From Nannocystis bainbridge (GTDB taxonomy: Bacteria; Myxococcota_A; Polyangia; Nannocystales; Nannocystaceae), in contig NZ_JAQNDL010000003.1 in assembly GCF_028368995.1 (NCBI RefSeq), positions 1,312,001-1,376,000 on the forward strand: a DNA stretch of 64,000 nt. Reading direction: 5' to 3'. Each line of letters starts with the position of its first letter. The stretch's first letter is position 1. Under the pieces are notes generated by a model. The model saw nothing but the letters and a program-made list of their open reading frames with translations, ran no database searches and was not told where the DNA came from. Shown in pieces: positions 3,800 through 59,361 of the stretch. The translations under genes and the position numbers were made by a program.

Positions 3800-3838
3800 T
3801 GTCCCCAGAGACAGGCTCGGTTCCTGTCTCCGGAGACA
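3800..3838. repeat. Two TGTC-N6-GACA palindromes
   Basis: TGTCcccagaGACA at 3800 and TGTCtccggaGACA at 3825. Confidence 0.75.
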
Positions 3839-3960
3839 GCTCGGACGGCCGTCCGCCGGGGCCCGGGCCCGCGCGCGGTCGCCCGCGTCAATGGCGCACT
3901 GCAGTACCGTGTTTTCTCGACTATTGAGGGATTTCCCTGGCCGAGGTAGCAATCTTGCGC

Positions 3961-4566
3961 ATGGCCGCACCACCCCGTCCTCCCCGCGACGACGATCCGC
4001 GCTCGGAGCCGTGGGTGTCGATCGACGAAGTCGCCGCCCACCTCGGGGTGCGCAAGGACTCGATCTACCGCTGGATCGAGCGCCGCGGCCTGCCGGCGCA
4101 GAAGATCGGCAAGCTGTGGAAGTTGAAACTTTCGGAGGTCGACAAGTGGATGCTGGCCGAGGGCCAGCGCCGCTCGGAGACGCCGGGACAGCACCCGGCG
4201 ACGGCTGCGCCGCGTGACTACGTGTTGGTCGTCGACGACGACGAGGTGGTCCGCGAGTCGCTGCGCGACTTCCTGGTCGACGAGGGCTACGGCGTGCTGG
4301 CCGCCGCCGACGGCCTGGAGGCGTTCGAGCTGCTGGCCGCCCCGGCGACGCCGCTGCCCGCCGTCATCGTGCTCGACCTCAAGATGCCGCGCATGGGCGG
4401 CCAGGAGTTCCGCGAGGTCAAGGCCCGCGACCCTCGCCTGGCCCCGATCCCGGTGCTGCTGGTGACGGCCGAGCGGCGCGTCGACGCCGGCGGCGCCATC
4501 GTCCTGCGCAAGCCGATCGAGCTCGGCGCGCTGCGCGACGCGCTGCGCAAATTGCTGGGCCGCTGA
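3961..4566 (+). CDS. Excisionase-like (HTH_17) DNA-binding domain fused to a receiver domain
   Basis: EPWVSIDEVAAHLGVRKDSIYRWIE...KIGKLWK HTH followed by VLVVDDD...VLDLKMP...RKP receiver. Confidence 0.85.
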   Translation: MAAPPRPPRDDDPRSEPWVSIDEVAAHLGVRKDSIYRWIERRGLPAQKIGKLWKLKLSEVDKWMLAEGQRRSETPGQHPATAAPRDYVLVVDDDEVVRESLRDFLVDEGYGVLAAADGLEAFELLAAPATPLPAVIVLDLKMPRMGGQEFREVKARDPRLAPIPVLLVTAERRVDAGGAIVLRKPIELGALRDALRKLLGR

Positions 4567-4610
4567 GACCACCATGAGCCGCACCGCCGAGCGCCGCTGA
4601 GGAAGAGACC

Positions 4611-5684
4611 ATGAGCCGCACCGCCGACGACGACACCCGCACCGCCGAGCGCCGCTTCGCCGCGCTGACGCAGGCGTCCGGCCAGGCCGTATGGCGGGTC
4701 GCGGCCGACGGCGCCCGACCGCTCGAGGACTCGCCGGGCTGGCGCGCGCTGACCGGCGTGAGCCGCGAGCAATGGCTCGAGCGCGGCGTGCTCGCCGGTG
4801 TGCCGGCCGGCGACCGCGACCGCGTCGAGGCGGCCGTGCGCGCCGCCTTCGCGGCCGGCGTCGCGTGGGACCTCGAGGTCCGCCTGCAGCGCCCCGACGG
4901 CCACCTCGGGTGGGCGCTGCTGCGCGCCGCGCCGGTGGAAGGCCCGCGCGGCGAGCGGGTCGAATGGGTCGGCACCGTCGCCGACATCCAGCGCCGCAAG
5001 GACGTCGACTCGTTCCGCGACATGATGACGGGGATCCTCGGGCACGACCTGCGCAACCCGCTGAACGCGATGATGGTCTCGGCCCAGCTGGCCCACCTGC
5101 GCGCGCGCGAGGAGCCGGTCCGCACCCCGCTCGAGCGCGTGCTCGCCAGCGGCGAGCGCATGGGCCGGCTCATCGATCAGCTGCTCGACCTGACGCTGAC
5201 GCGCCTGGGCGGCGGGCTCGTCGTCAACCCGGTCGCGGCCGACCTGCGAGAGATCGTCGAGCAGGCGCTCGAGGACCTGCCGGCCGCGAAGCCGCGGATC
5301 CGCTTCGACGCCGTCGGCGACCTGCGCGGCACCTGGGACTTCGACCGCCTGCAGCAGGTCGTCACCATCCTGCTCGGCAACGCCGTCGATCACGGCGCCC
5401 CCGGCACGCCGATCTCCGTCCGCGCTGTCGGCGAGGCCGAAGCCGCCGTCGAGCTGATGATCCACAACCACGGCCCCGCCGTGCCCGAGAGCGTGCGCGA
5501 GGCGGTGTTCGAGCCGTTCCGCCGCACCGACCCGGCCCGCCGCCACGGCGCCCGCGCGCTCGGCCTCGGCCTGTTCGTGAGCCGCCAGCTGGTGCTCGCC
5601 CACGGCGGCACGATCGCGTTCGAGTCGAGCGACGCCGGCGGCAACCTGATGCACGTGCACCTGCCCCGCCGGCCCCCGGCGTGA
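4611..5684 (+). CDS. PAS-domain sensor histidine kinase
   Basis: PAS_3-like SPGWRALTG...EWVGTVADI; GHDLRNPL H-box; GNAVDHG; LGLGLF. Confidence 0.9.
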   Translation: MSRTADDDTRTAERRFAALTQASGQAVWRVAADGARPLEDSPGWRALTGVSREQWLERGVLAGVPAGDRDRVEAAVRAAFAAGVAWDLEVRLQRPDGHLGWALLRAAPVEGPRGERVEWVGTVADIQRRKDVDSFRDMMTGILGHDLRNPLNAMMVSAQLAHLRAREEPVRTPLERVLASGERMGRLIDQLLDLTLTRLGGGLVVNPVAADLREIVEQALEDLPAAKPRIRFDAVGDLRGTWDFDRLQQVVTILLGNAVDHGAPGTPISVRAVGEAEAAVELMIHNHGPAVPESVREAVFEPFRRTDPARRHGARALGLGLFVSRQLVLAHGGTIAFESSDAGGNLMHVHLPRRPPA

Positions 5685-5739
5685 CGAAGCGTGACGGGTG
5701 ACGTGACCCGCGGCGCCGCGTGACGGCGTCGCTACGCGG

Positions 5740-6410
5740 CTGACGCTGGCGCATGATGTGTCGGGGCGGCGCTGTATAACGGCGCCCCATGGAGCATCGC
5801 CATACTGCTTGAAGCGCAGCATGGCGTGTCGAGGCAAGCTGCGTGAGTGCGTCGCATGAAGTGTTGCGGCGACGCTGCGTAGCGGCAGCGCATGCTGTGT
5901 CGCGGCGACGCAGTGTTGCGGCAGCGCATGCTGTGTCGCGGCGACGCTGTGTTGCGGCAGCGCAGTCGCGGCGACGCTGCATGAAGGCGGCGCATGAACT
6001 TTCGGCGACGCTTCGTGAATGCGTCGCATGACGTGTCGCAATGCTGCGCGACGGCGTCGCATGAAGTATCGGCGGCGCTGCGTGAATGCGCCGCATGACG
6101 TGTCGCAGCGATCTGCGAGACGGCGTCGCATGAAGTATTGCGGCGGCCCTGTGTGGCGGCATCGCAGGCGTGTAGCGACGTGCTGCATGATGGCGTCGCA
6201 TGACGTCTCGCAGCGATCTGCGAGACGGCGTCGCATGAAGTATTGCGGGCGGCCCTGCGTGGCGGCATCGCAGGGCGTGTAGCGACGTGCTGCATGACGG
6301 CCTCGCATGAAGTATCGCGGCGGCCCCGCGTGACCGCGTCCCATGAGGTGCCGCGGCGACGCTGCGTGACGGCGTCCCATGACGTCTCGCGGTGACGCTG
6401 CGTGAACCCG
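5740..6410. repeat. Degenerate tandem array of ~19 units with a ~33-36 bp period (core GCGTCGCATGA(A/C)GT...GCGACGC)
   Basis: (G/C)CATG cores at about 5751, 5787, 5819, 5854, 5890, 5926, 5992, 6026, 6059, 6093, 6128, 6198, 6233, 6305, 6341 and 6377; ~105-bp higher-order duplication 6093-6197 vs 6198-6304. Confidence 0.85.
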
Positions 6411-6924
6411 CGACGCCTTTGCGCGCCGCGGCGCGACGCTTCGACCGCGGCGAGGCAACCCGCCTCGCGGAACTCTCCCTCGCGCGCCCATCGACCCCGC
6501 TCATCCCCCGGACCGCCCGCCCATCGGCGAGCACGGGCACTCGCGCGCCCCCGGGCGAGCGGACGGGTGGTCGCCGCCACTGTCCGGCGCCTCGCTGCGA
6601 TTTTGTGGCTGGCGGGGCGCTCCCACTCGCCAATGGGAGCACCGCGGGCCTGCAGCCGGCTTTCCTGCGGCCTGAGCGGCAGTTCTCGGCCATTCGTCTC
6701 GCAAAACAATGATTTCCCCGATAACAAAATCAGTTTTAGCCCGTCCTCTCGCCGCCATGAAACTGGGTCTCAGTCGGTCACAGTCGGTAAAAGTCGAAGA
6801 AAAACAGCGCATACTTCGCAGTTAACGTCGTTATTGATGCGATCTTGATGCGTTTGGCCGCTCTCCTGACGTCCTCTTGATCCGATCATTGCGAATCTAT
6901 TGGAGGTCAGACGAGGGGTCCACA

Positions 6925-8169
6925 ATGCTCAATCGAATCACCGCTTCCGGGAATGCTTGCACTGTCACTTCGGCGCCGATGGGTGGTGCGACGACCGCGC
7001 GTTACTTCCGCGAGCTCGCGGACGTGACGGTGATGGGCAAGGACGAGGAGCTGGTCGCGGCGACGCGCCTCATCGAGCTGCGCAAGACCATGTGGGCCGC
7101 CTTCCTCGCCTACCCGCCGTTCGTCTCGGCGATCTGCGCCCTGGTGGCCGAGCGCCTGTCGGCCGAGTCGGTCCCGCCGGCCGTGCTCGAGGCGGTCGAG
7201 AAGACCTCGCGCGCCCTCCGCGACCGCGTCCTCAAGAGCCACGAGGAGGCCTTCACCGCCGCGCGCAACGCCCTCATCGAGCGCCTCGTGTTCGCCGACG
7301 TCGACAGCGTGGTGGCTGACTCGATCCTCGCCGACCTCACCGGGCTCGAGAGCGACCGCGGCGTCGCCACCAACATGAAGGTCAAGCCCCCGTACCGCGA
7401 CAGCGCCCCGTTCGTCCGCTACGTCGCGGCCGCCCGCCGGGCCCACAGCGCGGTGATGCTGGCCAAGAACGCGTTCGTGCGCTCCAACCTCCGCCTCGTG
7501 GTCGCCATCGCCCGCCGCTTCGCCCGCAGCTCGATCCCGCTGCAGGACCTGATCCAGGACGGCAACATGGGCCTGATGAAGGCCGTCGACCGCTTCGACC
7601 CGACCCGCGGCTGCCGCTTCGCCACCTACGCCGCCTGGTGGATCCGCTACGCCATCACCCGCGCCATCGTCGACACCGACCGCAGCGTCCGCCTGCCCCT
7701 GCACATGATCGACGCGTGCAAGAAGGTCAGCCGCGCCCGCCGCGAGTACGAGGTGATGTACGGCCGCTGCCCGACCGACGAGGAGCTGTCCTCGGCCACC
7801 GGCATCAGCATGGAGCGCATCCAGCGGATGAGCTGGTCGCTGATCGACCAGCCGCTGAGCCTCTCGCTGCCGGCCACCCGCGACGGCGAGGGCAGCCTGG
7901 CCGACACCCTGGTCGACGCGACCCTGGTCGCCCCGTCCGAGCTGATGGACTCGGCCGTCCTCCAGGACGCCCTGCTCGAGGTGTTCGAGAAGCTGTCGCC
8001 GATGGAGGCCGACATCCTGCGCAAGCGCGTCGGCATGGACGGCGAGCCCGAGCTCACCCTCAAGGAGATCGGCGCCAACTACTCGCTGTCGCGCGAGCGC
8101 ATCCGTCAGCTGCAGGAGCAGGCCCTGCGCAAGCTCCGCTCGGAGTTCGAGCGCCGCCAGCTGATGTAA
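6925..8169 (+). CDS. RpoD/SigA-family (non-ECF) sigma-70 factor, probably an alternative group 2-like sigma
   Basis: Region 1.2 (YFRELA...EEL), region 2 NLRLVVAIARRF/DLIQDGNMGLMKAVDRFD/FATYAAWWIR, region 4 TLKEIG...LSRERIRQ; no region 1.1; start chosen after GAGGGG. Confidence 0.92.
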   Translation: MLNRITASGNACTVTSAPMGGATTARYFRELADVTVMGKDEELVAATRLIELRKTMWAAFLAYPPFVSAICALVAERLSAESVPPAVLEAVEKTSRALRDRVLKSHEEAFTAARNALIERLVFADVDSVVADSILADLTGLESDRGVATNMKVKPPYRDSAPFVRYVAAARRAHSAVMLAKNAFVRSNLRLVVAIARRFARSSIPLQDLIQDGNMGLMKAVDRFDPTRGCRFATYAAWWIRYAITRAIVDTDRSVRLPLHMIDACKKVSRARREYEVMYGRCPTDEELSSATGISMERIQRMSWSLIDQPLSLSLPATRDGEGSLADTLVDATLVAPSELMDSAVLQDALLEVFEKLSPMEADILRKRVGMDGEPELTLKEIGANYSLSRERIRQLQEQALRKLRSEFERRQLM

Positions 8170-8535
8170 TCACAATAGCGACTCCCTGCTGAACCCGTCT
8201 GATACGACCCCCGACCCCGAGCCGATCGCCCCAACCCCTGGGCGATCGGCTCGCGTCATTTTTGGGTCACCGTCGACCGTCGGCCGCTGCGCTCGCGCTC
8301 GCTTCGCCGGGGCGCCGACGGGTGACCGGCGCACCGCCCGTCCGCAGCCAGCGGGCCGCCGGCAGGGGCGGCCCTTGAGCCCGCTATTCCGACTTTCGGC
8401 GCCCCCGCCGACCCTGGTGGACCGACGTGACATAGCCGAGCCCGGTGAGCGGACTTTCGAGGTTGCCGCTCGCACGCCGCCAGCCCTAAACTGGCGGGGC
8501 CGGGCTGCGCTCGGCACGCCCGAGTCGGCAAGCAC

Positions 8536-10260
8536 ATGACCGCAATCACTGCCAGCGAACGCGCGAGCATCCCCAAGGCCCCCACGGGGATCAACGGCCT
8601 CGACGACATCACCGGAGGCGGCCTCCCGCGCGGGCGGCCGACGCTCGTATGCGGCAGCGCCGGTTGCGGCAAGACCTTGATGGCGATGGAGTTCCTGGTC
8701 CGCGGCGCCATCGAGTTCGACGAGCCCGGGGTGTTCTTCGCCTTCGAGGAGACGGCCGACGACCTGACCGCCAACGTCCGCTCGCTCGGCTTCGACCTCG
8801 ACGACCTGGCCGCGCGCGACAAGCTGATCGTCGAGCACATCCATATCGAGCGCAGCGAGATCGAGGAGGCCGGCGAGTTCGACCTCGAGGGCCTGTTCAT
8901 CCGCCTGGGCCTGGCGATCGACACCGTCGGGGCCAAGCGCGTGGTGCTCGACACGCTCGAGACCCTGTTCGGCGGCTTCGACAACGAGGGCATCCTGCGC
9001 GCGGAGCTGCGGCGGCTGTTCCGCTGGCTCAAGGACCGCGGCGTCACCGCCGTCATCACCGCCGAGCGCGGCGACGGCACCCTCACCCGCCAGGGCCTCG
9101 AGGAGTACGTGTCCGACTGCGTGATCCAGCTCGACCACCGCATGCACGACCAAGTGTCGACGCGGCGGCTGCGGATCGTCAAGTACCGCGGCACCCACCA
9201 CGGCACCAACGAGTACCCGTTCCTCATCGACAGCGACGGCTTCTCGGTGCTGCCGCTGAGCTCGCTCAAGCTCGACCACGAGGCCTCGACCGAGCGCGTG
9301 TCGACCGGCATCGAGCGCCTCGACGCCATGCTCGCCGGCGGCGTGTACCGCGGCACCAGCGTGCTGCTGTCCGGCACCGCCGGCACCGGCAAGTCGAGCA
9401 TCGCCGCCCACATGGCCGCCGCCTGCTGCGCCCGCGGCGAGCGCTGCCTCTACTACTCGTTCGAGGAGTCGCCGTCGCAGGTGCTCCGCAACATGCGGAC
9501 GATCGGCCTCGATCTGGCCCCGTGGCTCGACAACGGCATGCTCCACTTCGTCTCGACCCGCCCGACCTTCCACGGGCTCGAGATGCACCTGGCGACCATG
9601 TTCAAGCATGTCCGCGAGTTCGACCCGCAGTTGGTCGTCATCGACCCGATCAGCAATTTCATCTCGGTCGGCACCGCCGGCGAGGCCCAGTCGATGCTGC
9701 TGCGGCTGGTCGACTACCTCAAGAGCCGGCAGACCACGGCCGTGTTCGTCAGCCTGATCAGCGGCGGCAAGGGCCTGCTCGAGGCGACCGAGCAGAACAT
9801 CTCGTCGTTGATCGACACCTGGATCTTGCTGCGGGACGTCGAGCTCGGCGGCGAGCGCAACCGCGGCCTCCACGTCCTCAAGTCGCGCGGCACCCCGCAC
9901 TCCAACCAGGTCCGCGAGTTCGTGCTCACCGCGCACGGCGTCGAGCTGCGCGACGTCTACGTCGGCCCCGAGGGCGTGCTGACCGGCTCGATGCGGCTGG
10001 TGCAGGAGGCCAAGGAGCGCGAGGCCTCCGAGCTGCGCCGGCAGGCTATCGCCCGCAAGCGGCGAGAGATCGAGCGCAAGCGACAAGCACTGACGGCCCA
10101 GATCGCGGCCCTGCGGGCCGAGTCGGAGAGCGAGGAGCTCGAGCTCGAGCTGCTGCTCTCGGCCGAAGAGGCGGTCGATCGGCGGCTCGCCGACGACCGC
10201 GTCGGCATGGCGTCCAGTCGCCGCGCTGACGGCAACAAGCAACAGGAGGAATCGCCATGA
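8536..10260 (+). CDS. kaiC: Circadian clock protein KaiC (double RecA-like domain with C-terminal coiled coil)
   Basis: CI Walker A GSAGCGKT and FEE; [11 protein letters not shown]; CII Walker A GTAGTGKS and FEES; phosphosite region NISSLIDTW; [12 protein letters not shown]. Confidence 0.96.
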
Positions 10261-10580
10261 ACAGCGAGCACGAACTTCAGGCGGGATCCGACGAGCCCGA
10301 CGTCTGGGAGCTGCGGCTGTACGTCGCCGGTCAGACCCCGAAGTCGATGCAGGCGCTGCATAACCTGCAGAAGATCTGCGAGGAGCACCTGCCCGGGCGC
10401 TACCGCATCGAGGTCATCGACCTCCACAAGCACCCGAAGCTGGCCAAGCAGGACGAGATCGTCGCCATCCCGACGCTCGTCCGCAAGCTGCCCGACCCGA
10501 TCCGCCGCGTCATCGGCGACCTCTCGAACCTCGAGAAGGCGCTGATCGGCCTGCAGCTGGTGCCCGCGACGAACCCATGA
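10257..10580 (+). CDS. kaiB: Circadian clock protein KaiB
   Basis: [12 protein letters not shown]...[23 protein letters not shown]; ATGA overlap with kaiC. Confidence 0.96.
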
Positions 10581-10714
10581 CCGCCCGCGCGACCGCCGTC
10601 TCTACCTGTCCTTTCGGCCAGGCCCAGCGTGACCGCCGTGCGCCCTCCGGGGCCCGTGCGGTCACCTGTCTCTTCGGCCATACGCGGGCCCACCCGGCGG
10701 AGGTGACGTCGTGA
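10577..10714 (+). CDS. Putative 45-aa small ORF, translationally coupled at both ends (not in the ORF track)
   Basis: ATG overlaps the kaiB stop (ATGA) and its TGA overlaps the GTG of the next kinase (GTGA); [45 protein letters not shown]. Confidence 0.45.
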
Positions 10715-12735
10715 GCGACGCCCTCGCCGCTGCCCAGCGGGAGCTCGAGGAGCTGCGCCTCCGCCTCGCCGAGGCCCAGGAGACCATCCGCGCGATCCAG
10801 GGCGGCGAGGTCGACGCCCTCGTCGTCAGCGACGAAGAGTCGCCGCGGGTGCTCACGCTCGACGCCGCCGACAAGCCGTACCGCCTGCTCGTCGAGCAGA
10901 TGCACCACGGCGCCGCCGCGCTGACGATCGAGGGCGTCGTGCTGGCCTGCAACCCGGCGTTCACGCGGCTGCTGCGGAGCGAGCCGGCCGCGGTGCTGGA
11001 CCTGCCGCTGCAGCAGCACATCGACCCGCCGGGCCTGCCGGTGTTCGAGGCGCTGCTGCGCGACGGCCTGGCCGCGAGCGCCGAGAGCGAGGTCATGCTG
11101 CGCCGCGGCGACGGCGAGCGCATGCCGATCGTCCTCGGCGTGCGGGCGCTGCACGAGGGCGTCGCCGGCGTGTGCCTGCTGGTCGTCGACCTCAGCGAGC
11201 CGAAGCGACGCGAGCGGCTGATCGCCGACGAGGCGACCGCGCGGGCGATCCTCGAGCAGGTCGCCGACGCCGTGGTCGTGTGTGACAACGAGGGCACCGT
11301 CCTGCGCGCCAGCCGGGCCGCGCACGACCTGTGCGGCACCAACCCGCTGTTCCAGCGGTTCGACCGCGTGTTCTCGCTGACCCGCCACGACGAGCCCGGC
11401 GCGCTCGTCGACCTGACCGCCGCGTGGCGCGGCGAGCCGCTGCGCGGCCTCGAGGTCCGCTGGGACCGCCCCGGGGGCAAGCGCGCCGAGCTGATGCTGG
11501 GCGCCGGCCCGCTGGTCGTCGCCGGCGGCGAGCGGCTCGGCGTCGTCATCACCCTGACCGACATCACCTCGTTGCGCGAGGCCGAGGACGAGCTGCGCCG
11601 CCGCGCCAGCGAGCTCCAGGCCTCAGACCGCCGCAAGGACGAGTTCCTGGCGATGCTGGCCCACGAGCTGCGCAACCCGCTGTCGCCGATCCAGTCGTCG
11701 CTCGAGATCATGAGCCTGCAGGCGCTCGACGACCCGCTGACCAACCAGTGTCGCGAGGTCATCGAGCGCCAGGTCCAGCAGCTGACGCGGCTGGTCGACG
11801 ACCTGCTCGAGGTGTCGCGCATCAACACCGGCAAGATCCAGCTGCAGATCGAGCGCATCGACCTCGGCGCGACGGTGCAGCGCGGCATCGAGACCAGCCG
11901 CCCGGCCGTCGACGCCAAGCAGCACCGGCTGCAGTTCGTCGGCCCGCCCGAGCCGGTGTGGGTCCGCGCCGACGCCACGCGGATCGCCCAGGTGATCGGC
12001 AACCTCGTCAACAACGCCGCCAAGTACACCGAGAACGGCGGCGAGATCGCCGTGCGCCTCGAGAGCGAGCGCGGCCACGCCGTCGTCCGCGTGCGCGACA
12101 GCGGGATCGGCATCCCGCAGGAGATGCTGGGCGAGGTGTTCGACCTCTTCACGCAGGTCCACCGCTCGCTCGACCGCTCGCAGGGCGGCCTCGGCATCGG
12201 CCTGGCGCTGGTCAAGCGGCTCGTCACCATCCACGGCGGGCAGGTCGAGGCCCACAGCGACGGCGCCGGGCTCGGCAGCGAGTTCGTGATCCGCCTGCCG
12301 CAGGGGGAGAGCGAGCGCGCCGCGCCCGAGCCGCCGCGCGCCGACAAGGCCGGCTCCTCCGGGCCGAGCCTGCGCGTGCTCGTCATCGACGACAACCGCG
12401 ACGCCGCCGAGCTGCTGGCGGCCCTGCTCGGCATGCTCGGCCACAAGGTCGAGACCGCCGGCGACGGCCCGTCCGGCATCGCCGCGGCGCTGTCGTTCTT
12501 GCCGCAGCTGGTGCTGTGCGACATCGGCCTGCCGCTGCTCGACGGCTACGGCGTGGTCGCCGACCTGCGCCACCGCCCCGAGTTCGCCGCCACCCGCTTC
12601 ATCGCCCTCACCGGCTACGGCCGCGCGGAGGACCGCCAGCGCTCGCAGGCCAGCGGCTTCCACGCCCACCTGATCAAGCCGGTCGGCCTCGCCAAGCTCA
12701 AGTCGCTGCTGCGCCCGCCGCAGGACGAGACCTGA
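10711..12735 (+). CDS. Kai-associated PAS-PAS hybrid histidine kinase with C-terminal REC
   Basis: N-terminal LAEAQETIRAIQGGEVDALVV segment typical of kinases downstream of non-cyanobacterial kaiB; two PAS; AHELRNPL; NAAKYT; REC. Confidence 0.92.
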   Translation: MSDALAAAQRELEELRLRLAEAQETIRAIQGGEVDALVVSDEESPRVLTLDAADKPYRLLVEQMHHGAAALTIEGVVLACNPAFTRLLRSEPAAVLDLPLQQHIDPPGLPVFEALLRDGLAASAESEVMLRRGDGERMPIVLGVRALHEGVAGVCLLVVDLSEPKRRERLIADEATARAILEQVADAVVVCDNEGTVLRASRAAHDLCGTNPLFQRFDRVFSLTRHDEPGALVDLTAAWRGEPLRGLEVRWDRPGGKRAELMLGAGPLVVAGGERLGVVITLTDITSLREAEDELRRRASELQASDRRKDEFLAMLAHELRNPLSPIQSSLEIMSLQALDDPLTNQCREVIERQVQQLTRLVDDLLEVSRINTGKIQLQIERIDLGATVQRGIETSRPAVDAKQHRLQFVGPPEPVWVRADATRIAQVIGNLVNNAAKYTENGGEIAVRLESERGHAVVRVRDSGIGIPQEMLGEVFDLFTQVHRSLDRSQGGLGIGLALVKRLVTIHGGQVEAHSDGAGLGSEFVIRLPQGESERAAPEPPRADKAGSSGPSLRVLVIDDNRDAAELLAALLGMLGHKVETAGDGPSGIAAALSFLPQLVLCDIGLPLLDGYGVVADLRHRPEFAATRFIALTGYGRAEDRQRSQASGFHAHLIKPVGLAKLKSLLRPPQDET

Positions 12736-12769
12736 CCCGCCGGGCAGCCTCACGTCTTTCGTGAAGGGC

Positions 12770-12909
12770 TGTCCGTGAGGACATGGCCGGAGAGACACCC
12801 GAGGATGTCCTCTCGATCATGTCCTCAAAGCCATGCATGACCTTCCCGGCGCCGGTACTGCCCGTCCCGAGCGACACAATCTGGCCCTCCAAACATGTCC
12901 TCGAGGACA
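12770..12909. repeat. Cluster of TGTC-N6-GACA palindromes between convergent genes
   Basis: Perfect copies at 12770 and 12896; 1-mismatch copy chained at 12784. Confidence 0.75.
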
Positions 12910-12977
12910 GATTAAAATCACGCCGGCTGTCGGGTTCGCCCGGCTGGCGGGTCCAGGCACGCCCTCGACCCGCCTCG

Positions 12978-13973
12978 TCACGCCGGCGCGGGCGCGAGCG
13001 GCAGGCCGATCGCCAGCGTCGTCCCGCCGCCGCTCGGCGATGGTTCGTGCCACAGCCGGCCTCCGTGGGCCTCGACGATGCTGCGGGCCACGAACAGCTC
13101 CGTCGTCGTCCGCCGGCGCGCCAGCGACGGGCGGCCGAGGTCCGCGATCACGTCGCTGACGCGGAGCACCACCTCCGCGCCCACCACCTCGCCGCGCAGC
13201 ACCACCGCGCGCTCCGCCACCGCGGCCCGCAGCGCCGACTGCAGCGCGCTGGTCAGAGCCCGCACCAGGCGCTCGTGGTCGCCCAGCAGCCACGCCTCGC
13301 CCACCTGCAGCGTTTGCTCGATCCGGACCTTGCGCGCCGAACCCGAGGCCTCGCTGCGGGTGACCGCCTCTGCCACCAGCTCGCCCACCGGCAGCGGATA
13401 GCGCTCGAGCAGCTCCGGACTCCCGCGCAGGTCCGCCACCTCGTGCAGCCCGCGCGTCACGTCCTGCAGCCGCTGCGACGCGCTCTGCAGCATCTCCGTC
13501 ACCATCTCCTGCTCCGGCGAACCGCCGCCGAGCCCCCCCAGGTAATCGCGGCACAGGCAGATGTTCATCAGCGGGTTGCTGATGTCGTGCGCCAGCATCT
13601 CCAGCAGCTGCGCCTCGCGCTCGCGCAGCAGCGCCGCCATGCTCGCCGCGTACTGGCGGTCCAGCACCTCGTGGAGCGCCTCGCCGACCTCGCCCTCGCG
13701 ATCGGCCGGTTCGAGGTGGCCGGCGACGTCCCGGCGCAGCGCCGCGAACTCGCGCGCGAGCGCCTCGGGCCCGGCGTCCTCGCGCGCGCGGCTGGCCCCG
13801 TGCCCGGTCGCCGCGTCGGCGCTGGCCGTCGTGTCGGTCGTCTCCAGCAGCTCGGCCAGCTCCTCGACCAGCAGCTCGGCGCCCTCGAACAGCGTCACGA
13901 ACGCGGGCAAGCGCTCGCGCAGGCGCTGGGCGGCGTGCGCTCGGGACGAGGGTGGAGACCGCCGGGCCGGCAT
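12978..13973 (-). CDS. Histidine kinase-like protein with intact H-box and degenerate ATPase domain
   Basis: LAHDISNPL; GDHERLVRAL; ARSIVEAHGGRL; no N-box Asn and no DxGxG or GxGLG. Confidence 0.75.
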   Translation of the reverse strand: MPARRSPPSSRAHAAQRLRERLPAFVTLFEGAELLVEELAELLETTDTTASADAATGHGASRAREDAGPEALAREFAALRRDVAGHLEPADREGEVGEALHEVLDRQYAASMAALLREREAQLLEMLAHDISNPLMNICLCRDYLGGLGGGSPEQEMVTEMLQSASQRLQDVTRGLHEVADLRGSPELLERYPLPVGELVAEAVTRSEASGSARKVRIEQTLQVGEAWLLGDHERLVRALTSALQSALRAAVAERAVVLRGEVVGAEVVLRVSDVIADLGRPSLARRRTTTELFVARSIVEAHGGRLWHEPSPSGGGTTLAIGLPLAPAPA

Positions 13974-14235: not shown

Positions 14236-14403
14236 TGTCTTTGCAGACAGCCTCCTCCGAGGTCCCCGCGACCCTGACGCCCGCGGCCCGCCCCCCGGCG
14301 AACATGTCCGCGAGGACAGCCTCACCGGTCCCTGCGTGAATCCCCGTCCCGCATCCCACCTGTCCCCGAGGACATCCGCCTCCGTGACCTGTCCCCGAGG
14401 ACA
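14236..14403. repeat. Four TGTC-N6-GACA palindromes
   Basis: Copies at 14236, 14305, 14361 and 14390; the last two are identical (ACCTGTCCCCGAGGACATCCG). Confidence 0.8.
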
Positions 14404-14429
14404 TCCGGCGGCGCTCGACCTCGCTGGGC

Positions 14430-15047: not shown

Positions 15048-15626
15048 GATTTCCAACCATACCGCAGTCGAGCTCGCCGCCACCACCCGCCCGACTCGCG
15101 GGTTCGCGCGTGCGCTCGACGAAGCGTCGGGCGAGCCCGACCTGCGAGGGCGTGAGCTCGGCCTCACGCGCCGTCGCCGACGCCCGCACCGACGAGCTTG
15201 CGCGCCCGCCCGTGCGGCGGACGTGCCGTCACGCGCCGCCCTCGCCGCGCGCGTCCCGCTCGCGCCCGGCTCGGCCAGGCGCTGCGAGCCCGACCTCTGG
15301 CAGCGCCTCGACCGAGCTGGGGCCGGCCAGCTCGCTAGCCAGGCCGCAGGCTCGCCCGCGTCGGAGATCCCCCGCTCGAGCTCGCCTTGAGGTCGGCCCG
15401 CCGCGATTGTGCCAGTGCCCCCAGCGGCTGACCTTTCGGACATCTCGCGCTCCCTTCGCCGCTGCGCGTCATGACCGACCTCAGCCATGTACCTGCATGT
15501 GACCCGGCGAATACGAACTGTGGTTCGCCGGAGCCGCTGCGACAGCGGCACGCGTGTATGCCACACACGGTGCGGCAGGCGCTGATATTGCGGCGCGGCC
15601 CCGGAGCGAGGACACTGTCACTCGGC

Positions 15627-17171: not shown

Positions 17172-17229
17172 TGTCCCGAAGGACATGCTGCGCCGGGCCG
17201 CCTTGACGACATGTCCCTCGGGACATGTC
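17172..17229. repeat. Two TGTC-N6-GACA palindromes between convergent genes
   Basis: CATGTCCCGAAGGACATG (17170) and GACATGTCCCTCGGGACATGTC (17208). Confidence 0.8.
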
Positions 17230-20299: not shown

Positions 20300-20388
20300 T
20301 GTCCCTTTCGCCATGTGCGAAGGGACATCCGAGACACGACCCGGATCCAATCCATCGAGATGCCCCCGAGGACAGGTCCACGCGGACG
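20300..20388. repeat. Chained degenerate TGTC-N6-GACA units between convergent genes
   Basis: TGTCcctttcGCCA-TGTGcgaaggGACA and TGCCcccgagGACA-GGTCcacgcgGACG, each pair at a 14-bp period. Confidence 0.6.
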
Positions 20389-44389: not shown

Positions 44390-44417
44390 TGCCTTCAAAG
44401 ACATGTCTTGAGAGACA
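44390..44417. repeat. Chained TGTC-N6-GACA units between convergent genes
   Basis: TGCCttcaaaGACA-TGTCttgagaGACA. Confidence 0.7.
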
Positions 44418-47179: not shown

Positions 47180-47392
47180 CATGTAGAAATAGACATGTCA
47201 CATCGGACATGTCGTAACGGGCATGTCGCAGAGAGCATGTCGTAACGAGCATGTCGTGACGGCCATGCAAAGTCGGAGCGTCGAGCGGCGCGCGGATCTC
47301 CATGCGCCATAGCGACGGCGGCGTGAAGCGTTCGCCGCGACCGCGGAGCTCGCCGGGACTCTTCTCCAGGAAAATGTCCGAGAGGACATGTC
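47180..47392. repeat. 14-bp-period chain of CATGTC units plus an extended palindrome
   Basis: CATG at 47180, 47194, 47208, 47222, 47236, 47250 and 47264; TGTCcgagagGACATGTC at 47375. Confidence 0.85.
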
Positions 47393-49011: not shown

Positions 49012-49461
49012 CGCCGCCGAGGTGTACCAGGCCCGCCGGCCCCGGCAAAGCGCCCTGAAGCCGCCGGAGACGCGGCCTTCGTCGCAACCGAGTAGCGAAC
49101 CGGAGGTCGCGGGCCCGGACTGCGAACCCCGACGCAAGCCCTCGCCGGGTGACCTCCGCTCGCGCGAGATCGCGGCGCACGGAGCCCCGGCCCCGTTCGC
49201 CGCGGGGAGCTCACGGCGCCGGGTCCAGGCGAAATCACCGCGAGCGACCGAGGCGGCGATCCACGCGCAGGCGCGGGCGGCCTCTCATCCGGGCCCCGGC
49301 CCGGGCCCGTCGCCATCACCTGGCCTTCGAGACAGCTTTTAAAACCTGCCTCTCGGGATAGGTGCGCCACACACGCAGGCGCTGCCCGGCCGCTCAGCCG
49401 GTCGCGGGGATCCGCACCTGCGCGGGCTGACCGCCGGCCTGCACCGGGCTAGATTCGTCGC

Positions 49462-50409: not shown

Positions 50410-50412
50410 GCG

Positions 50413-52198: not shown

Positions 52199-53093
52199 GA
52201 GGTAGTCACTCCTTGATCCCGCAGTGCGGGCGCAGGCAGTGTCGGCGAGGCGACGGCCGCGTACAAGGGTCAAACGCCGGCGTCGGCCGGATCGGGCGAT
52301 TGCCACGCAAACGTCGTTTACATGGCGATTGAAGCGTTTCGGCGCGATACGTCGGCGGTCGCGGGCGGCCGTCCCCACCTCGTGCAGCGACAGGGCGGAG
52401 CGCCGCATCGCCGCAAAACCGCGTACTGCCGGCGACCGAGCCTGACCCCTGCACACACAACGACCGCCGACCCGGGCGTAGATCTCGCCCGCGGACAGAG
52501 GTCCGTGGCGCGACGACAGCCGCGACCTCGGGCCGCGCCGGCAAGCACCCCACGCCGACCTCGACGCCGCCGGTCGGCCGCCGCGAGCCGCGATTCCCTC
52601 GCTCGCGCCGGTTTGACCGCGAGCGCGCAACACCAGCGCGAGCGCAATCGACGCCAGCGCCTGCGTAAGCATCCGTTCATTTTTCTCGGCGGCCTTCACC
52701 GCGAGCCGCGGCCGCGCGCTCGCACGAAGCGGGCCACGACGCGCCATCGACAGGCACACCCATGCTCGCTCCGCCGCCCACGAAGCTGCGCCTGACAGCG
52801 AGGATGCGGGCCGCGACCGCGCCATCGCCGGGCTCGCTCGCGCTGGCCGCGGTTCGTGCTCCACTGCCAGCGGCCACGCGCCGACGCACCGCCGTCGCTT
52901 CGCGGCGGGCGGCCCCATCGCGGCAGACGACGCGGATGAAGCCCCGCGCGGCGGACGGTGAAATTTTCGTCATGCGCTCGTGTCGACCCCCGTCTGTGTG
53001 CACGCTCGAGCCCACGGACGCCGTTCGAGGCGCGCCGTGTTCGGGCCGACGCCGTCGTCATCGCCACCGCTCGGCCCAGGGAGACCGTCGACA

Positions 53094-56000: not shown

Positions 56001-56210
56001 GTGCTGAACGAGTGGGTGCGGATCACCGCGATCCACCCGGACACGCGCCAGATGTGGACCTTCGACGCCCGCTTCGGCTTCCGCCCGTACGCGCCGACGC
56101 CGGTCGAGCTGCCGGTGGTGCCGCGCTCCGAGGACTGGTGCGCCGGCCGCGTCGAATGCCTGAAGCCGGTCCGGGTCGTCACGCCCAACGAGGTGAAGCA
56201 TGCTCCCTGA
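53094..56210 (+). CDS. dabA: DUF2309 (DabA/MpsB-like) beta-carbonic-anhydrase-like subunit of an inorganic carbon transporter
   Basis: PLEVFVHNNLL, LPGWAG, putative Zn ligands in CLDDRFE, GHDT..VNNP and CAACGG; LFLDRR.LLISYD, DLRTGLP.Q....HEPMRL. Confidence 0.9.
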   Translation: MTTTDAALAHGPRDRLRHALERAAQWLPIQAPLEVFVHNNLLVAFQHLPFHQAMLAARRKLGVRGYFPEDRYRHEHAVGRITEADLDAVFADEPLPDLPLAPNFPSARAIARTVTRYSIGAETPADLHWKIVEEQATTFFAADTGEDARNAILAATADWLQPQLAHLQGREAELAALVVGRPPFRTPTGELTALLGDRLHAAAFAERREPVAVRALWTACVDACVHYAGMPVIGARKLWTHRELLRACSDIDANDLVHAVLIPLCAAFLDRGQSHWSMPDRADGFFNAWLRVKQAGVSIRPSWLGGADKRMRDWQTRGVTAEDAVIELLAELGVEPDEYEAYVERTLLQLPGWAGMFHRLGHAPGPIGRSRAKIELLDFLAVRLALDLFAFRDIARQVGHSGPASQIRRVCAGLPQIAPPPVRGPHDTAWPLFQLAQHAGIAAPTIRAASRGEIDVLVAFLDRHDDMTRMRLWHEAYERHYRVELLDAIAANVRQARMPEVAPRFQVMLCLDDRFESSRRYLEEISPEVETYGGPGFFGVAFAYQGIDDPRTFPLCPVIVTPQHRIDEVVLTQQYDLAQLRKQRIQRIARVRQLFGRASRSLWLGLLVSIVTGVFSLVPLLLSIFAPRTAGKLREAVRKRILPEPKTRLTPARIGLDKAPGDDLLPGFSVDEMAARVASLLENLGMTKRFGKLIVALGHDTSSVNNPLLAAYSCAACGGRSGGPNARYLAHIGNRPDVRERLAARGIVIPPESVFVAGVYDTCAEKIAWIDEDLLPAAARGELAALTVILDEMCRRNALERSRRFATAPKLPDAQAARKHVESRAVDLSEPRAELGHATCACSIVGRRELTYGLFLDRRCLLISYDPTQDPDHKILERTLAATSPVGAGISLDYYCSSVDPEKLGSGTKLPHNVTALAGVMNGSSSDLRTGLPTQATEMHEPMRLEVIVEATPEVLQDILTRQAAVAELVLNEWVRITAIHPDTRQMWTFDARFGFRPYAPTPVELPVVPRSEDWCAGRVECLKPVRVVTPNEVKHAP

Positions 56211-57606
56211 ACTGCTGTCCGTCGGGTTCGCGCTGGCGCCGGTGTGGCCGGCCCTGGCGGCGATCGTCGTCGCCCTGCTGCTGCTGCCGGGCACGCGCCC
56301 GTCGGAGCGCCTGGTCGCCCGCATCACCACCGCGGCCGGCTGGCTGAGCCTGCTCAGCGCCGTCTGCGGGGTCGGCCTCTACCTGTCCCATGGGCCAGTC
56401 GATTATCGGCTCGGCAACTGGTACGACGCCGCCGGCTACAGCTTCCCGCTGGTGCTGCTGTTCGACGGCCTGGCAGCGGCGATGTCGGCGTTCATCGCCG
56501 TGATCGTGCTGACGACGGTGCGGTTCTCGGTGACCTACCTGCACCGCGAGCCGGGCTTCATCCGCTTCTTCGTGCTGACCCTCGGCTTCGCCGCCGGCAT
56601 GCAATTGCTGGTGATGGCCGGCAGCGTCGAGCTGCTGTTCATCGGCTGGGAGTTCGTCGGCCTCAGCTCGGTGCTGCTGGTCGCGTTCTTCCACGAGCGG
56701 GCGATGCCGGTCCAGGCGGCCCTGCGCGTGCTCGTCACCTACCGCGTGTGCGACATCGGCCTGCTGATCGGTGCGGTGACGCTGCACCACTGGCTCGGCA
56801 GCACGGTGTGGGTCGACGTGTTCGCCCGCCTGCCGCAGCACACCGGCGCCGCCGCCGGGCTGGCGACCGCGCTGGCGCTGGTGTTCGCGGCCATGGGCAA
56901 GTCGGCCCAGTTCCCGGTCGGCGGCTGGCTGCCGCGGGCGATGGAGGGCCCGACGGCCTCGTCGGCGGTGTTCTACGGCAGCCTCTCGGTCCACGCCGGG
57001 GTGTTCCTGCTGCTGCGCGCGGCGCCGCTGATCGAGCAATCGCTGACGGCGCGCATCGTGCTGGTGATCGTCGGCCTGACGACGGCGGTGATCGCCGCGC
57101 TCAGCAGCCAGGTCAGCGCCGACGCCAAGTCGGCGGTGGCCCACGCGACCGCCAGCCAGGTCGGCCTGATGTTCGTCGAGTGCGGCCTCGGCTTCTACAC
57201 GCTGGCGACGGTCCACCTGATCGCCCACGCGACCCTGCGCTACTATCAATTCCTGCGCACGCCCACGGCGCTGCACGACGCGCTGTGGCAGCAGGCCGCG
57301 CTCGGCCGCACCGACTCCGACGAGGCCGCGGCCCGCTGGGAGGGCCTCGCGCTCGGCCAGCGGCGCGCGCTCTACCGCCTCGCGCTCGAGCGGTTCGCCG
57401 TCGAGCAGGCGCTCGACCGCCTCGTCACCCGCCCGATCATGAACCTCTCGCGCCTGCTCGATCGGCTCGAAGGCGGCCTCCTGGCCCTGCACGGCCGCCA
57501 GCCCGAGGCCGGCACCGGCGCGCCGCTGCCGGTCATGGCGCCCGACATGAACGGCGACCCCGCTTTCAGGCCCGCCGACCACGGCGCGCCGGAGGCCCGC
57601 ACATGA
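56200..57606 (+). CDS. dabB: NuoL/MrpA-like proton-conducting membrane subunit (DabB/MpsA-like)
   Basis: IGWEFVG, YRVCD, MGKSAQFP..GWLPRAMEGPT, HAGVFLL, ADAK; overlaps the end of dabA. Confidence 0.85.
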   Translation: MLPELLSVGFALAPVWPALAAIVVALLLLPGTRPSERLVARITTAAGWLSLLSAVCGVGLYLSHGPVDYRLGNWYDAAGYSFPLVLLFDGLAAAMSAFIAVIVLTTVRFSVTYLHREPGFIRFFVLTLGFAAGMQLLVMAGSVELLFIGWEFVGLSSVLLVAFFHERAMPVQAALRVLVTYRVCDIGLLIGAVTLHHWLGSTVWVDVFARLPQHTGAAAGLATALALVFAAMGKSAQFPVGGWLPRAMEGPTASSAVFYGSLSVHAGVFLLLRAAPLIEQSLTARIVLVIVGLTTAVIAALSSQVSADAKSAVAHATASQVGLMFVECGLGFYTLATVHLIAHATLRYYQFLRTPTALHDALWQQAALGRTDSDEAAARWEGLALGQRRALYRLALERFAVEQALDRLVTRPIMNLSRLLDRLEGGLLALHGRQPEAGTGAPLPVMAPDMNGDPAFRPADHGAPEART

Positions 57607-59108
57607 CCCACGACCTGGTCGCCCTCGCCATCCCGCTGCTGTGGCTGTTCCCGCTGCTGGCCGCGTTCGTGGTCCAGTTCCTGATCCGCGAGCCGACCCG
57701 CCAGCGCGACGTCGCCATCGGCGTGGCCTGGGTGGTGTTCGCCGTGGCGATGGGGGCGTTCCTGCTCAACGGCTGGGACTCGCACTTCGACCGCGACGAC
57801 CTCGAGTCGGGGCTGTTCATGTCGCTGCGCTTTCACATGGCGGTCGACGGCCTCAACGCGCTGCTGCTGCCGATGACCGCCGCGATCGCCCTGGCCTCGC
57901 TGCTGTCGACCCCGCGCTCCGACCTGCGCGGCAACACGGCGGCGCGGATCCTCGCCGTGGAGGGCACCCTGCTCGGCTGCTTCCTCGCGCTCGACGCCGC
58001 CACCCTGTCGCTGTTCTGGGTCGGCTCGATGCTGCCGCTGTGGCAGGACACCCGGCGCAGCAAATCGCGGCCGCTGCACCTCGTCATGACCCTCGCCATC
58101 GCGGCCACCACCGCCGCGCTGGTGGCCGCGCTGGTGATCATGGCCGGGGCCGGGGCCGCCGGCTCGGCCTCGCCGTTCGACCTGCTGGCGCTGACGCAGG
58201 CCACCACCTCGTTGCCGCCGATCGTCGGCTGGCTGTTCCTGTTCGTCGCGCTGCTGCGCATGGGCATCTTCCCCATGCACCTGTGGCTGACCGCGGCCGG
58301 CTGGCGCGCCCCCGGCTACTCGGCGATGCCGGCGCTGTTCACCTCGCTGGGCTCGTTCGGGCTGACGCGCGTGGTCATGCCGCTGTTCCCGCGGCTGTGC
58401 GAGCAGGTGTCGACGCCGCTGGTGGTCCTCGGCGCCGTCACGGCCCTCTACGGCGCGGTGCTGGCGGTCGGCCAGTACGACCTGCGGCGCGTCATCAGCT
58501 ACTTCTGGGTCAGCCAGATGGGCCTCGTGCTCACCGGCCTGGCCACCCTCAACGCCCCCGGCGTGTCGGGCGGGCTGCTGCAGGCGATGTCGTCGGTGGT
58601 CGAGGTCTGCGGCCTGATGCTGATCGCGCTCGAGGTCGAGGCCCGGGCCGGCACCACCGACATGCGCCTGCTCGGCGGCCTGGTCCGCCGCGCCCCGCGG
58701 CTCACCACCGGCTTCCTCATGCTGTCCACCGCGGCCGTCGGCTTCCCCGGCACGATCTCCTTCGTCGCCGAGGACCTCGCCATCCAGGGCCTCCTCTACG
58801 ACCACCCGCTGGCCGCCGCGCTGCTGCTGGTCGTCACCGCGATCAACGGCGTGGCCCTGTTCAAGGCGTTCAAGCAGACCTTCCTCGGCCCCGGCTCGCA
58901 GCACGCCAAGGACCTGCGCTCGTTCGCCGACCTGCGCGGCTGGGAGTACCGCGCCTCGGTCGCGCTGATGGCCACGCTGCTGATCGGCGGCCTCATGCCG
59001 CAGCCGCTGCTCGCCGTGCGCGCCGGCGTCGTCGACGCCCTGCAGAAGCTCGAGCCGGCCGCGGCCCACGTCGTCGCCCCGGACGACGACGACGACGACG
59101 ACGGCTGA
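57603..59108 (+). CDS. NuoM/MrpD-like membrane subunit with degenerate key residues
   Basis: VDGLN, FPMHLWL, QYDLRRVISY, GGLVRRAP, GFPGTISFVAE; ATGA overlap. Confidence 0.82.
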   Translation: MTHDLVALAIPLLWLFPLLAAFVVQFLIREPTRQRDVAIGVAWVVFAVAMGAFLLNGWDSHFDRDDLESGLFMSLRFHMAVDGLNALLLPMTAAIALASLLSTPRSDLRGNTAARILAVEGTLLGCFLALDAATLSLFWVGSMLPLWQDTRRSKSRPLHLVMTLAIAATTAALVAALVIMAGAGAAGSASPFDLLALTQATTSLPPIVGWLFLFVALLRMGIFPMHLWLTAAGWRAPGYSAMPALFTSLGSFGLTRVVMPLFPRLCEQVSTPLVVLGAVTALYGAVLAVGQYDLRRVISYFWVSQMGLVLTGLATLNAPGVSGGLLQAMSSVVEVCGLMLIALEVEARAGTTDMRLLGGLVRRAPRLTTGFLMLSTAAVGFPGTISFVAEDLAIQGLLYDHPLAAALLLVVTAINGVALFKAFKQTFLGPGSQHAKDLRSFADLRGWEYRASVALMATLLIGGLMPQPLLAVRAGVVDALQKLEPAAAHVVAPDDDDDDDG

Positions 59109-59142
59109 ACGTCGAAGCATGTCGCACCGGGCTCGCCATGCC

Positions 59143-59361
59143 TGTCCCTTCGGACATCTCGCGCGGCTAGCGACGACGCATGGCCCCGGCCATCGACCCG
59201 CCGCCGACCTCGGCCTGGCCGCGGCGCACGTCTCGCCGGGCGCACGTCGACATGTCTCTTGGGCCATCTCTCCGACGCCGTCCTCGTCCTGTCCGGGACC
59301 AGGGTACCGGCCTCGACCGTGATCGTCGCGGTCGAGCTCCCACGACCTGTCCTTCGTGACA
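59143..59361. repeat. Cluster of TGTC-N6-GACA palindromes
   Basis: Perfect copies at 59143 and 59348; 1-mismatch copy at 59253. Confidence 0.7.

Follow-up and report, generated by a model that had tools for sequence, protein, structure and literature searches.

A hyper-abundant, 14-bp-phased palindrome at gene ends in Nannocystis and two sister genera: possible duplex-DNA sites for an oligomerising protein

The genome of the myxobacterium Nannocystis bainbridge contains thousands of copies of a short palindrome, TGTC-N6-GACA, that occur in a strict 14-bp register, are concentrated just past stop codons, and may be duplex-DNA sites for a putative oligomerising, symmetric protein at gene ends. 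The palindrome was noticed in a first-pass annotation of a 64-kb stretch of chromosome (contig C2, 1312001-1376000; this whole stretch is called the window below), and we followed it across the assembly (G000 in our genome set; 11.05 Mb in 5 contigs, 71.5% G+C, 90% complete). Genome-wide, the pattern with a 6-nt spacer had 3663 matches; the other spacer lengths between N0 and N15 gave 29-155 each (78 for N5, 120 for N7, and the lowest count, 29, for N8), a clear excess that confirms the constant spacer length proposed from the window. The window itself contained 19 perfect matches compared with 0.75 expected (standard deviation 0.82 and maximum 3 over 100 dinucleotide shuffles), in agreement with the annotation's estimate of less than one chance copy per 64 kb, and 53 sites with at most one mismatch compared with 19.9 expected.

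The extended consensus drawn from the window, (A/G)C(A/C)TGTCC-N4-GGACA(T/G)G(T/C), is valid genome-wide, and the sequence beyond it is unconserved. Spacers are diverse, with a mild pyrimidine-pyrimidine-purine-purine tendency, and the most frequent 6-mer spacer is found in 107 of the 3663 sites. Each arm is self-complementary, so that GGACATGTCC, composed of the pentamer half-sites GGACA and TGTCC, is itself a palindrome, and the element can be described as this decamer repeated with a strict period of 14 bp; two alternating dyad axes can be read directly from such an arrangement. In helical terms, 14 bp corresponds to 1.33 turns, and three units to four turns. The 8-mer GACATGTC is the commonest of all intergenic 8-mers, with 1588 intergenic copies, ahead of all pure G+C words, and its 2237 copies compare with 2-794 for the other 8-mers counted, mostly palindromes as well. 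Distances between successive perfect sites peaked at 14, 28, 42 and 56 nt (144, 88, 61 and 36 pairs), and the TGTC-to-TGTC autocorrelation peaked at 14, 28, 42, 56 and 70 nt (1576, 769, 703, 341 and 183, where background counts were roughly 40-300). Sites with at most one mismatch numbered 11,671, and 1548 neighbouring pairs of them lay exactly 14 bp apart, compared with 0, 1, 5 and 6 pairs at 12, 13, 15 and 16 bp, and the longest chains comprised six sites. Even GACATGTC words that lack a perfect partner show a degenerate one at plus or minus 14, and about 40% of intergenic CATG tetramers have a second CATG 14 nt away.

Spacers of 14-bp neighbours were mostly unrelated, being identical in 33 of the 1548 pairs (6.2 expected) and sharing five of six bases in 62 (37 expected), which indicates that recent slippage accounts for only a few per cent of the arrays. 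We sought a master sequence, and the most frequent 22-mer had 5 copies among the 3663 sites; an all-against-all comparison of 2777 loci revealed no longer surrounding element, similarity arising only through the 14-nt arrays themselves. The annotation's fallback suggestion, that the palindrome is the core of an unrecognised dispersed repeat, was correct. Its palindrome is real and larger than stated, and what it missed was the 14-bp phasing, the self-palindromy of the arms, and some 1300 copies inside genes. Several other N6-spaced word pairs were also over-represented genome-wide: TCAA..CAAC, ACAA..CAAC, GTTG..TTGA, GTAG..TTGT and ACTA..CTAC, each about 20-80 fold, are richer in A+T and point to another dispersed repeat family, and CGTC-N6-GACG was raised as well (2989 compared with 563).

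Placement of the sites followed the ends of genes. With all gene positions taken from a crude codon-likelihood caller (7949 genes, 83% coding), site density was highest in convergent gaps (918 sites, 2.87/kb), followed by tandem gaps (1183 sites, 1.1-1.25/kb), divergent gaps (232 sites, 0.44/kb) and genes (1330 sites, 0.145/kb), which extends to the whole genome the intergenic enrichment seen in the window. At least one site was present in 564 of the 1463 convergent gaps, and 1880 of the 7949 genes had a perfect site in their 3' gap, the first of which began within 50 nt of the stop codon in 1040 cases. In length-normalised terms, convergent gaps had 5.9-7.5 sites/kb within 20 nt of a stop, falling steadily to 0.3-0.95/kb beyond 150 nt, and tandem gaps had 2.75-3.7/kb near the stop compared with 0.65/kb near the start. 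The density right after stop codons is about 50 times that of coding sequence, whereas the 50 nt next to start codons contain few sites; promoters are avoided and divergent gaps depleted. The annotation had likened the sites conceptually to matS, SlmA or Noc sites, and this analogy did not hold. There was no origin or terminus zone, with 13-56 sites per 100 kb in every 250-kb bin of the 5 contigs, including the two regions where GC skew switches, and chromosomal spacing was irregular (coefficient of variation 1.13). The tie to stop codons suggests a role at gene ends or a spread shaped by tolerance, rather than macrodomain organisation.

If the arms paired in RNA or in single-stranded DNA, one would expect covariation between them, an excess of G.U over A.C mispairs on the transcribed strand, and variable loop lengths, and none of these was seen. 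At mirror positions the Watson-Crick fractions equalled the expectation under independence, for example 0.591 compared with 0.571 at (4,9) and 0.409 compared with 0.392 at (-3,16), and a single pair, (-1,14), showed a weak excess (0.578 compared with 0.472). Variants in one arm were 3-5 fold more frequent than in spacer controls (857 compared with 164 for TGGC..GACA, and 752 compared with 157 for TGCC..GACA), while compensated doubles at the most tolerant position stayed at control level (TGCC..GGCA, 295 and 298; TGGC..GCCA, 428 and 435; TGAC..GTCA, 116 and 84). The half-sites are thus independent of each other. When 635 sites within 80 nt of a stop in tandem gaps were oriented by the upstream gene, the logo was mirror-symmetric and contained no downstream T-run, and mispairs of G.U and A.C type were equally common (64 and 80, 96 and 76, 99 and 100), so that no strand bias is apparent. 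The annotation's preference for a dimeric-protein site over an RNA hairpin is supported by the single spacer length, the absence of covariation, the enrichment of single-arm but not of compensated double variants, and the lack of asymmetry with respect to transcription.

We also considered whether the motif is the organism's intrinsic terminator, and rejected this because the transcribed strand carries no T-run and the tRNA genes use separate canonical terminators. The 102 tRNA genes identified by ARAGORN end in G+C-rich hairpins followed by T-runs; a perfect motif lies within 120 nt downstream of 5 of them and upstream of none, and the terminator comes first where both occur. Only 36 motif hairpins have a T-rich tail. 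Strict canonical terminators were found in 3.0% of 3' gaps with the motif and 3.1% of those without, indicating no trade-off between the two. About 25 of the tRNA genes form a dense array within 2.6 kb (C2:2556665-2559233), and 7 more are grouped at C2:2356727-2357509.

The motif is confined to three genera of the Nannocystaceae. We counted a strict 16-mer, ATGTCC-N4-GGACAT, in 59 genomes of the order and in 12 genomes from other families of the class. It was present in all 10 genomes of the genus Nannocystis, including the present one (25-652 copies), and in all genomes of two sister genera (23-34 copies in 4 of 4, and 11-102 copies in 5 of 5), giving 19 genomes with the motif and 40 essentially without, of which 30 had no copy and 10 had one. 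In the 12 genomes of other families it was absent from 11 and occurred once in the remaining one. A relaxed pattern gave 422-623 copies in three sister-genera genomes (9-98 for reversed-pattern controls) and 66-186 in two motif-poor genera (controls 38-73). Phased double sites were found in all 10 Nannocystis genomes (10-144 copies); of the two sister genera, one had them in 2 of 5 genomes and the other in none of 4, and the remaining 40 genomes had none. The strict count is inflated in one genome (G013), where eight identical 16-mers are copies of a 3.3-kb TniA/TniB-type transposon carrying one motif each. That repeat spans at least 3.25 kb, and its copies, of which there are at least 8, share 96.0-99.9% identity (at least 99.6% among seven of them); its products are an rve/Mu-type transposase and an AAA_22 ATPase (TniA/TniB-like), and the motif lies inside the transposase gene.

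Within Nannocystis the arms are conserved between species; the annotation had proposed a comparison of related myxobacteria as a check. In syntenic DNA of four relatives (80-120 kb each), most intergenic gaps were unalignable. Three window sites (3800, 3825 and 41548) lie in alignable DNA, and in all four relatives their arms are kept and their spacers changed. From the relatives' side, 24 of 93 sites could be aligned to the source genome and 18 of the 24 were perfect there, with an identity of about 0.95 at the eight core positions compared with 0.73 in the spacer and 0.72 in the flanks. Gap occupancy was conserved even in the absence of sequence conservation: among the 21 of 39 window gaps that could be mapped in at least one relative, sites were found in 22 of 24 comparisons for occupied gaps and in 1 of 44 for empty ones. 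The number and position of sites within orthologous gaps differ between species. Two relatives have, in one gap, arrays of a longer local repeat with one arm variant and a constant loop. In relative G001, the gap orthologous to window 12735-12978 holds 880 nt of approximately 100-nt tandem repeats, each containing CCTGTCCGTTCGACC, a half-degenerate version of the motif.

The window is ordinary chromosome, with two-component systems, a kaiC/kaiB-like pair, sigma factors and a dabA/dabB-like operon. A DabA-like protein encoded there shares 91-92% identity with its counterparts in named Nannocystis records. Every one of the 18 perfect and 11 one-mismatch copies that the annotation listed there was found at its coordinate, 17 of the 19 perfect sites lie between genes by our crude gene calls (those at 25212 and 41548 are in genes), and the clusters that it placed between convergent genes at 12.8, 17.2, 20.3, 44.4 and 47.2 kb are indeed so placed. 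The sites are as follows, in window coordinates and with no strand assigned to any of them.

3800..3838: two perfect sites (3800, 3825), 33 nt past the stop of a hybrid histidine-kinase gene; both retained in all four Nannocystis relatives.
10607..10680: one-mismatch sites at 10607 and 10667, downstream of a kaiB-like gene; 3 of 4 relatives also have one-mismatch sites in the orthologous gap.
12770..12909: convergent-gap cluster of two perfect sites (12770, 12896) and three with one mismatch (12784, 12820 and 12863, the first of them in 14-bp phase with 12770); sites in 4 of 4 relatives, varying in number and position.
14236..14403: four perfect sites (14236, 14305, 14361, 14390) in a gap without genes.
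15429..15442: one-mismatch site.
17172..17225: 70-nt convergent gap with two perfect full sites, one beginning 3 nt past the stop of the + strand gene and the other ending about 12 nt before the end of the - strand gene; a site adjoining the - strand gene found in 3 of 3 mappable relatives; if transcribed, both predicted to fold into hairpins of 9 bp (-13.6 and -15.3 kcal/mol).
20300..20374: convergent gap with one-mismatch sites at 20300, at 20314 (in 14-bp phase with the first) and at 20361.
25212..25225: perfect core TGTCTATATCGACA within an amidohydrolase gene, the extended consensus being absent.
28475..28488: perfect full site with a run of eight T behind it; among the few copies that also fit an intrinsic-terminator pattern.
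30969..30982: perfect site in a tandem gap.
40949..40962: one-mismatch site in a 27-nt gap between two genes of a CoA-transferase operon; in 4 of 4 relatives.
41548..41561: perfect site inside the gene at 40964-41782.
44390..44417: convergent gap with a perfect site at 44404 and, in 14-bp phase with it, a one-mismatch site at 44390.
47182..47265: chain of (G/A)(A/G/C)CATGTC units in 14-nt steps with unrelated 6-nt spacers, a typical phased array (sites at 47182, 47196, which is perfect, 47210 and 47252, with weaker ones in between).
47375..47388: perfect site in the same convergent gap as the chain.
49321..49334: one-mismatch site, with 2-3 perfect sites in the orthologous gap of each of the 4 relatives.
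59143..59361: past the last gene of the dabA/dabB-like operon, perfect sites at 59143 and 59348 with a one-mismatch site at 59253 between them.

The nineteenth match, at 25212, is found in a gene and does not show the extended consensus; it is probably due to chance, which is expected to give about 0.75 matches per window. Two other features of the window were observed. The kaiC-like and kaiB-like pair, with PAS/histidine-kinase genes on its flanks (8536-10580), forms a cluster of clock-protein homologues in a myxobacterium. Between 5700 and 6450, degenerate repeats of about 36-40 nt around GCGTCGCATGA...GTGTCGCGGCGACGCTG fill a 1.3-kb gap upstream of a sigma-70-type gene (6979-8169), and the orthologous gaps of the four relatives contain different repeat arrays in the same place.

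About one third of all copies lie inside genes. In 7150 confidently called genes there were 1087 sites compared with 63-82 after synonymous codons were shuffled within each gene, a 15-fold excess, while other spacers gave 15-101; these copies are spread across 965 genes and are no further from intergenic copies than are random coding positions. Two reading frames dominate, encoding x-V-(P/L/S)-x-D-(M/S/I) and (L/M)-S-x-x-T, and the DNA motif imposes on coding copies the rare residues Met and His as well as uncommon codons, either ACA or ending in T. A small third-frame class, corresponding to a Cys-rich C-P-x-G-Q protein motif, is probably a coincidence at the protein level. The densest coding cases are Pro/Ala/Ser/Glu-rich, repetitive and evidently disordered segments of large proteins, often with periods of 36 or 42 nt, and one dense region apparently free of genes is most likely a disordered segment of a gene missed by the caller. 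Examples of such large proteins (TPR-type, Ser/Thr kinase and others) at C2:2066053-2070511, C3:712626-717846 and C2:1216679-1218890 have linkers made up of repeats 12-14 residues long (PVLADSPADASPEA and SPVPADMSPVTS are examples), and one copy of the motif underlies each repeat. The motif is therefore generated or favoured in genes too, and survives where the protein is unconstrained.

A single spacer length with free spacer sequence, independent half-sites, two dyads and a 14-bp period are the expected trace of a self-associating, symmetric protein, and placement close to stops and in both directions suggests a boundary at gene ends. From these observations we infer, with a probability of roughly 45%, that the sites are read as duplex DNA by a putative oligomerising protein. 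Protomers of one sequence-specific protein would bind one pentamer after another, alternating in orientation and joined by two kinds of two-fold interface, one across the CATG centre of the decamer and the other across the 4-nt spacer, and two to seven units could be occupied as a short filament. The role of such a filament would most likely be that of a bidirectional gene-end boundary, that is, a roadblock for transcription, an insulator or a block to the diffusion of supercoils, and the copies within genes would be tolerated by-products that survive only in DNA coding for unconstrained linkers. The strongest version of this proposal, in which Nannocystis and its two sister genera mark about one quarter of their gene ends with a polymerising-protein boundary that is kept in 14-bp register and acts in both directions as a roadblock and/or supercoil barrier, seems to us unlikely as a whole.

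Several observations weigh against a protein reader at gene ends. Every candidate for that protein that we tried either failed or was non-specific. The in-gene copies and the tolerance-shaped distribution are better explained by a drive that generates the motif; such a drive is suggested by the 15-fold excess in genes and the rare codons used, which a function at gene ends leaves unexplained. The region 0-50 nt past stops is also where RNA-level 3' elements and repetitive extragenic palindrome (REP) sequences are found. Full sites, if transcribed, are predicted to fold into 9-bp tetraloop hairpins of -11.6 to -15.3 kcal/mol, and such stability makes an effect at the RNA level physically likely in any case. 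The independence statistics were computed on sites picked for perfect cores, and absent covariation is equally expected of copies that are merely decaying. Finally, the conservation sample is small, its 24 aligned sites are not mutually independent, and the gene coordinates come from our own crude caller.

The first alternative is a REP-like selfish or neutral hairpin repeat, copied by a mechanism other than a REP-associated tyrosine transposase (RAYT) and accumulating where it is tolerated, in 3' and convergent gaps and in DNA coding for disordered linkers, with any function lying at the RNA level, where a 3' hairpin would stabilise or end transcripts. The ranking of convergent over tandem, divergent and coding DNA is a classic tolerance pattern, the sites are clustered, their stop-proximal placement resembles that of the REPs of Escherichia coli, and stable hairpins are predicted. 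Strict canonical terminators are rare (3% of 3' gaps), which makes the motif the commonest recognisable 3' feature at protein-coding genes. Some arrays have been tandem-duplicated recently, as the 33 identical neighbouring spacers indicate, and the longer constant-loop arrays in one gap of two relatives would also fit. However, no Y1 transposase of the RAYT type (PF01797) was found in the N. bainbridge genome, although the control search detected it in E. coli and five other references, and none was found in 10, 4 and 5 genomes of the three motif-bearing genera, while 17 of the 40 other genomes of the order have one. For this reason, and because there is neither a master copy nor a conserved loop or flank, we reject a REP/REPIN-RAYT system as such, despite its shared traits of extragenic, 3'-proximal, clustered palindromes able to form hairpins. 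The arms are fixed while the spacers are highly diverse, compensated stem variants are not enriched, and the transcribed strand shows neither a preference for G.U over A.C nor a U-tract. Hairpins would tolerate a range of loop lengths where we found one, and units in a chain give stems of only 5 bp. A hairpin repeat of this kind is doubtful, but it deserves serious consideration.

It is also conceivable, though in our judgement improbable, that the motif resembles the highly iterated palindrome HIP1 or uptake sequences in being under a genome-wide drive, with no local function for each copy. Such a drive could act through biased mismatch repair tied to a CATG/ACATGT methyltransferase, or through preferential uptake and recombination of motif-bearing DNA. 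It would explain why an 8-mer palindrome is the top intergenic 8-mer, why the in-gene excess overrides codon preference in favour of Met and His, and why the motif is clade-specific and evenly spread over the chromosome; sites are conserved between species, as reported for HIP1 (PMC5861425). A drive on an 8-mer, however, leaves the 14-bp phasing and the near-universal partner at plus or minus 14 unexplained. The post-stop density of about 50 times that of coding DNA is a skew far above that of HIP1 or the uptake sequences. An adenine methyltransferase of the D12 class, the one class that we considered as a driver, is uninformative, since all 59 genomes of the order have it irrespective of the motif.

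An ordinary regulon of a known transcription-factor family (CRP/FNR of the MrpC type, PadR or LexA) is very improbable: the palindromic 4-6-4 site is operator-like, and ATGT-N8-ACAT is the geometry of a PadR box, but the 3663 perfect copies lie mostly past stops and are depleted within 50 nt of starts and in divergent gaps, the CRP/MrpC operator TGT-N10-ACA corresponds to TGTC-N8-GACA, the rarest of all spacers with 29 copies, and no gene of the PadR family (PF03551) was found in the 90%-complete genome by a search that succeeded in 14 of 14 reference genomes.

Other candidate readers fared no better. A search for a p53 DNA-binding domain, made without a positive control, gave no match. A protein combining HTH_17 and receiver domains (window 4015-4566), chosen for the two conserved sites upstream of it, was rejected, full-length orthologues being present in 6 of 10 Nannocystis genomes (the six of at least 11 Mb) and absent from the other 4 and from the two sister genera. 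An Arc-like ribbon-helix-helix protein (C3:1940182-1940382), found among small, strongly codon-adapted genes, occurs in 8 of 10 Nannocystis genomes and in 4 of 4 and 2 of 5 from the two sister genera, but 5 of the 40 other genomes have it too; at 14 of 19 compared with 5 of 40 it is not exclusive, and we regard it as a weak lead rather than a candidate. Its gene lies directly behind one that we judged by eye to be of the SPFH/band-7 type, and the pair is conserved.

No published description of the Nannocystis motif was found among the papers listed for Nannocystis, for myxobacterial REPs or for the motif sequence, supplements lying outside the search, and there is a real chance that the mechanism behind this hyper-abundant palindrome is new. 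REP, HIP1 and the uptake sequences are among the few genome-wide signals found in bacteria, and several of them are unexplained decades after their discovery. In the present case the exact geometry, strict phasing, sharp clade boundary and clear positional rule make a search for the reader tractable. If a DNA-binding protein does act at gene ends, this would be a new way of delimiting transcription units in GC-rich bacteria, which have few canonical terminators at protein-coding genes; to our knowledge, no sequence-specific, genome-wide, DNA-bound terminator or insulator system has been described in bacteria. If the motif is instead driven or selfish, it would represent a family of palindromic repeats that spreads without RAYT and reshapes disordered protein segments. 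In practical terms, it provides a gene-end landmark for annotating Nannocystis, a genus mined for natural products, and calls for caution in cloning and assembly.

Comparison with known systems shows where the Nannocystis element stands. Binding sites for dimeric proteins such as matS (MatP), SBS (SlmA), NBS (Noc) and parS (ParB) number from tens to about 100 and are confined to, or excluded from, the origin or terminus. The present sites share with them the character of 12-16-bp palindromic duplex sites, but number thousands, are evenly spread, are tied to gene ends and form phased arrays. The met-boxes of the ribbon-helix-helix protein MetJ repeat AGACGTCT every 8 bp, and the response element of p53, which is tetrameric, consists of two RRRCWWGYYY decamers. 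The resemblance lies in a palindromic unit of 8-10 bp, a fixed period and alternating pentamer quarter-sites, and GGACATGTCC fits RRRCWWGYYY; it is a resemblance only, and those sites are few and at promoters, whereas the Nannocystis sites are found in thousands at gene ends. Uptake signal sequences (USS) of the Pasteurellaceae and DNA uptake sequences (DUS) of the Neisseriaceae are oriented, non-palindromic 9-12-mers that lie largely in genes and whose pair spacing is not fixed. Like the Nannocystis motif, they occur in thousands of copies, in clade-specific dialects, in tolerated parts of genes and as inverted pairs downstream of genes; unlike them, the Nannocystis motif is palindromic with a fixed pair spacing.

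REP sequences, bacterial interspersed mosaic elements (BIMEs), and REPINs with RAYT transposases are known from Enterobacteria, Pseudomonas and Stenotrophomonas; PMC3116915 and PMC3337134 deal with such elements. As with REP/BIME, the Nannocystis sites are short, clustered, clade-limited extragenic palindromes in hundreds to thousands of copies, found 3' of genes and in convergent gaps and capable of forming hairpins. They differ in having no RAYT, master sequence or conserved loop, a core of only 14-22 bp, an exact 14-bp period, self-complementary arms, and about one third of their copies in genes. HIP1 (GCGATCGC) of cyanobacteria, also treated in PMC4390886, is reported to be an octameric palindrome that is 15-300-fold over-represented, can exceed one copy per gene on average, and is apparently conserved by selection, with an unresolved function for which a role in nucleoid structure has been proposed (PMC5861425). 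The Nannocystis motif is likewise a hyper-abundant octameric palindrome, over-represented many-fold and with arms conserved between genomes. HIP1, however, is not described as paired, 14-bp-phased or tied to stops, whereas the Nannocystis motif is mainly extragenic and always occurs in phased pairs or arrays. The element thus has the niche of REP/BIME, the abundance and conservation of HIP1 and the clade specificity of uptake sequences, and it fails a defining feature of each.

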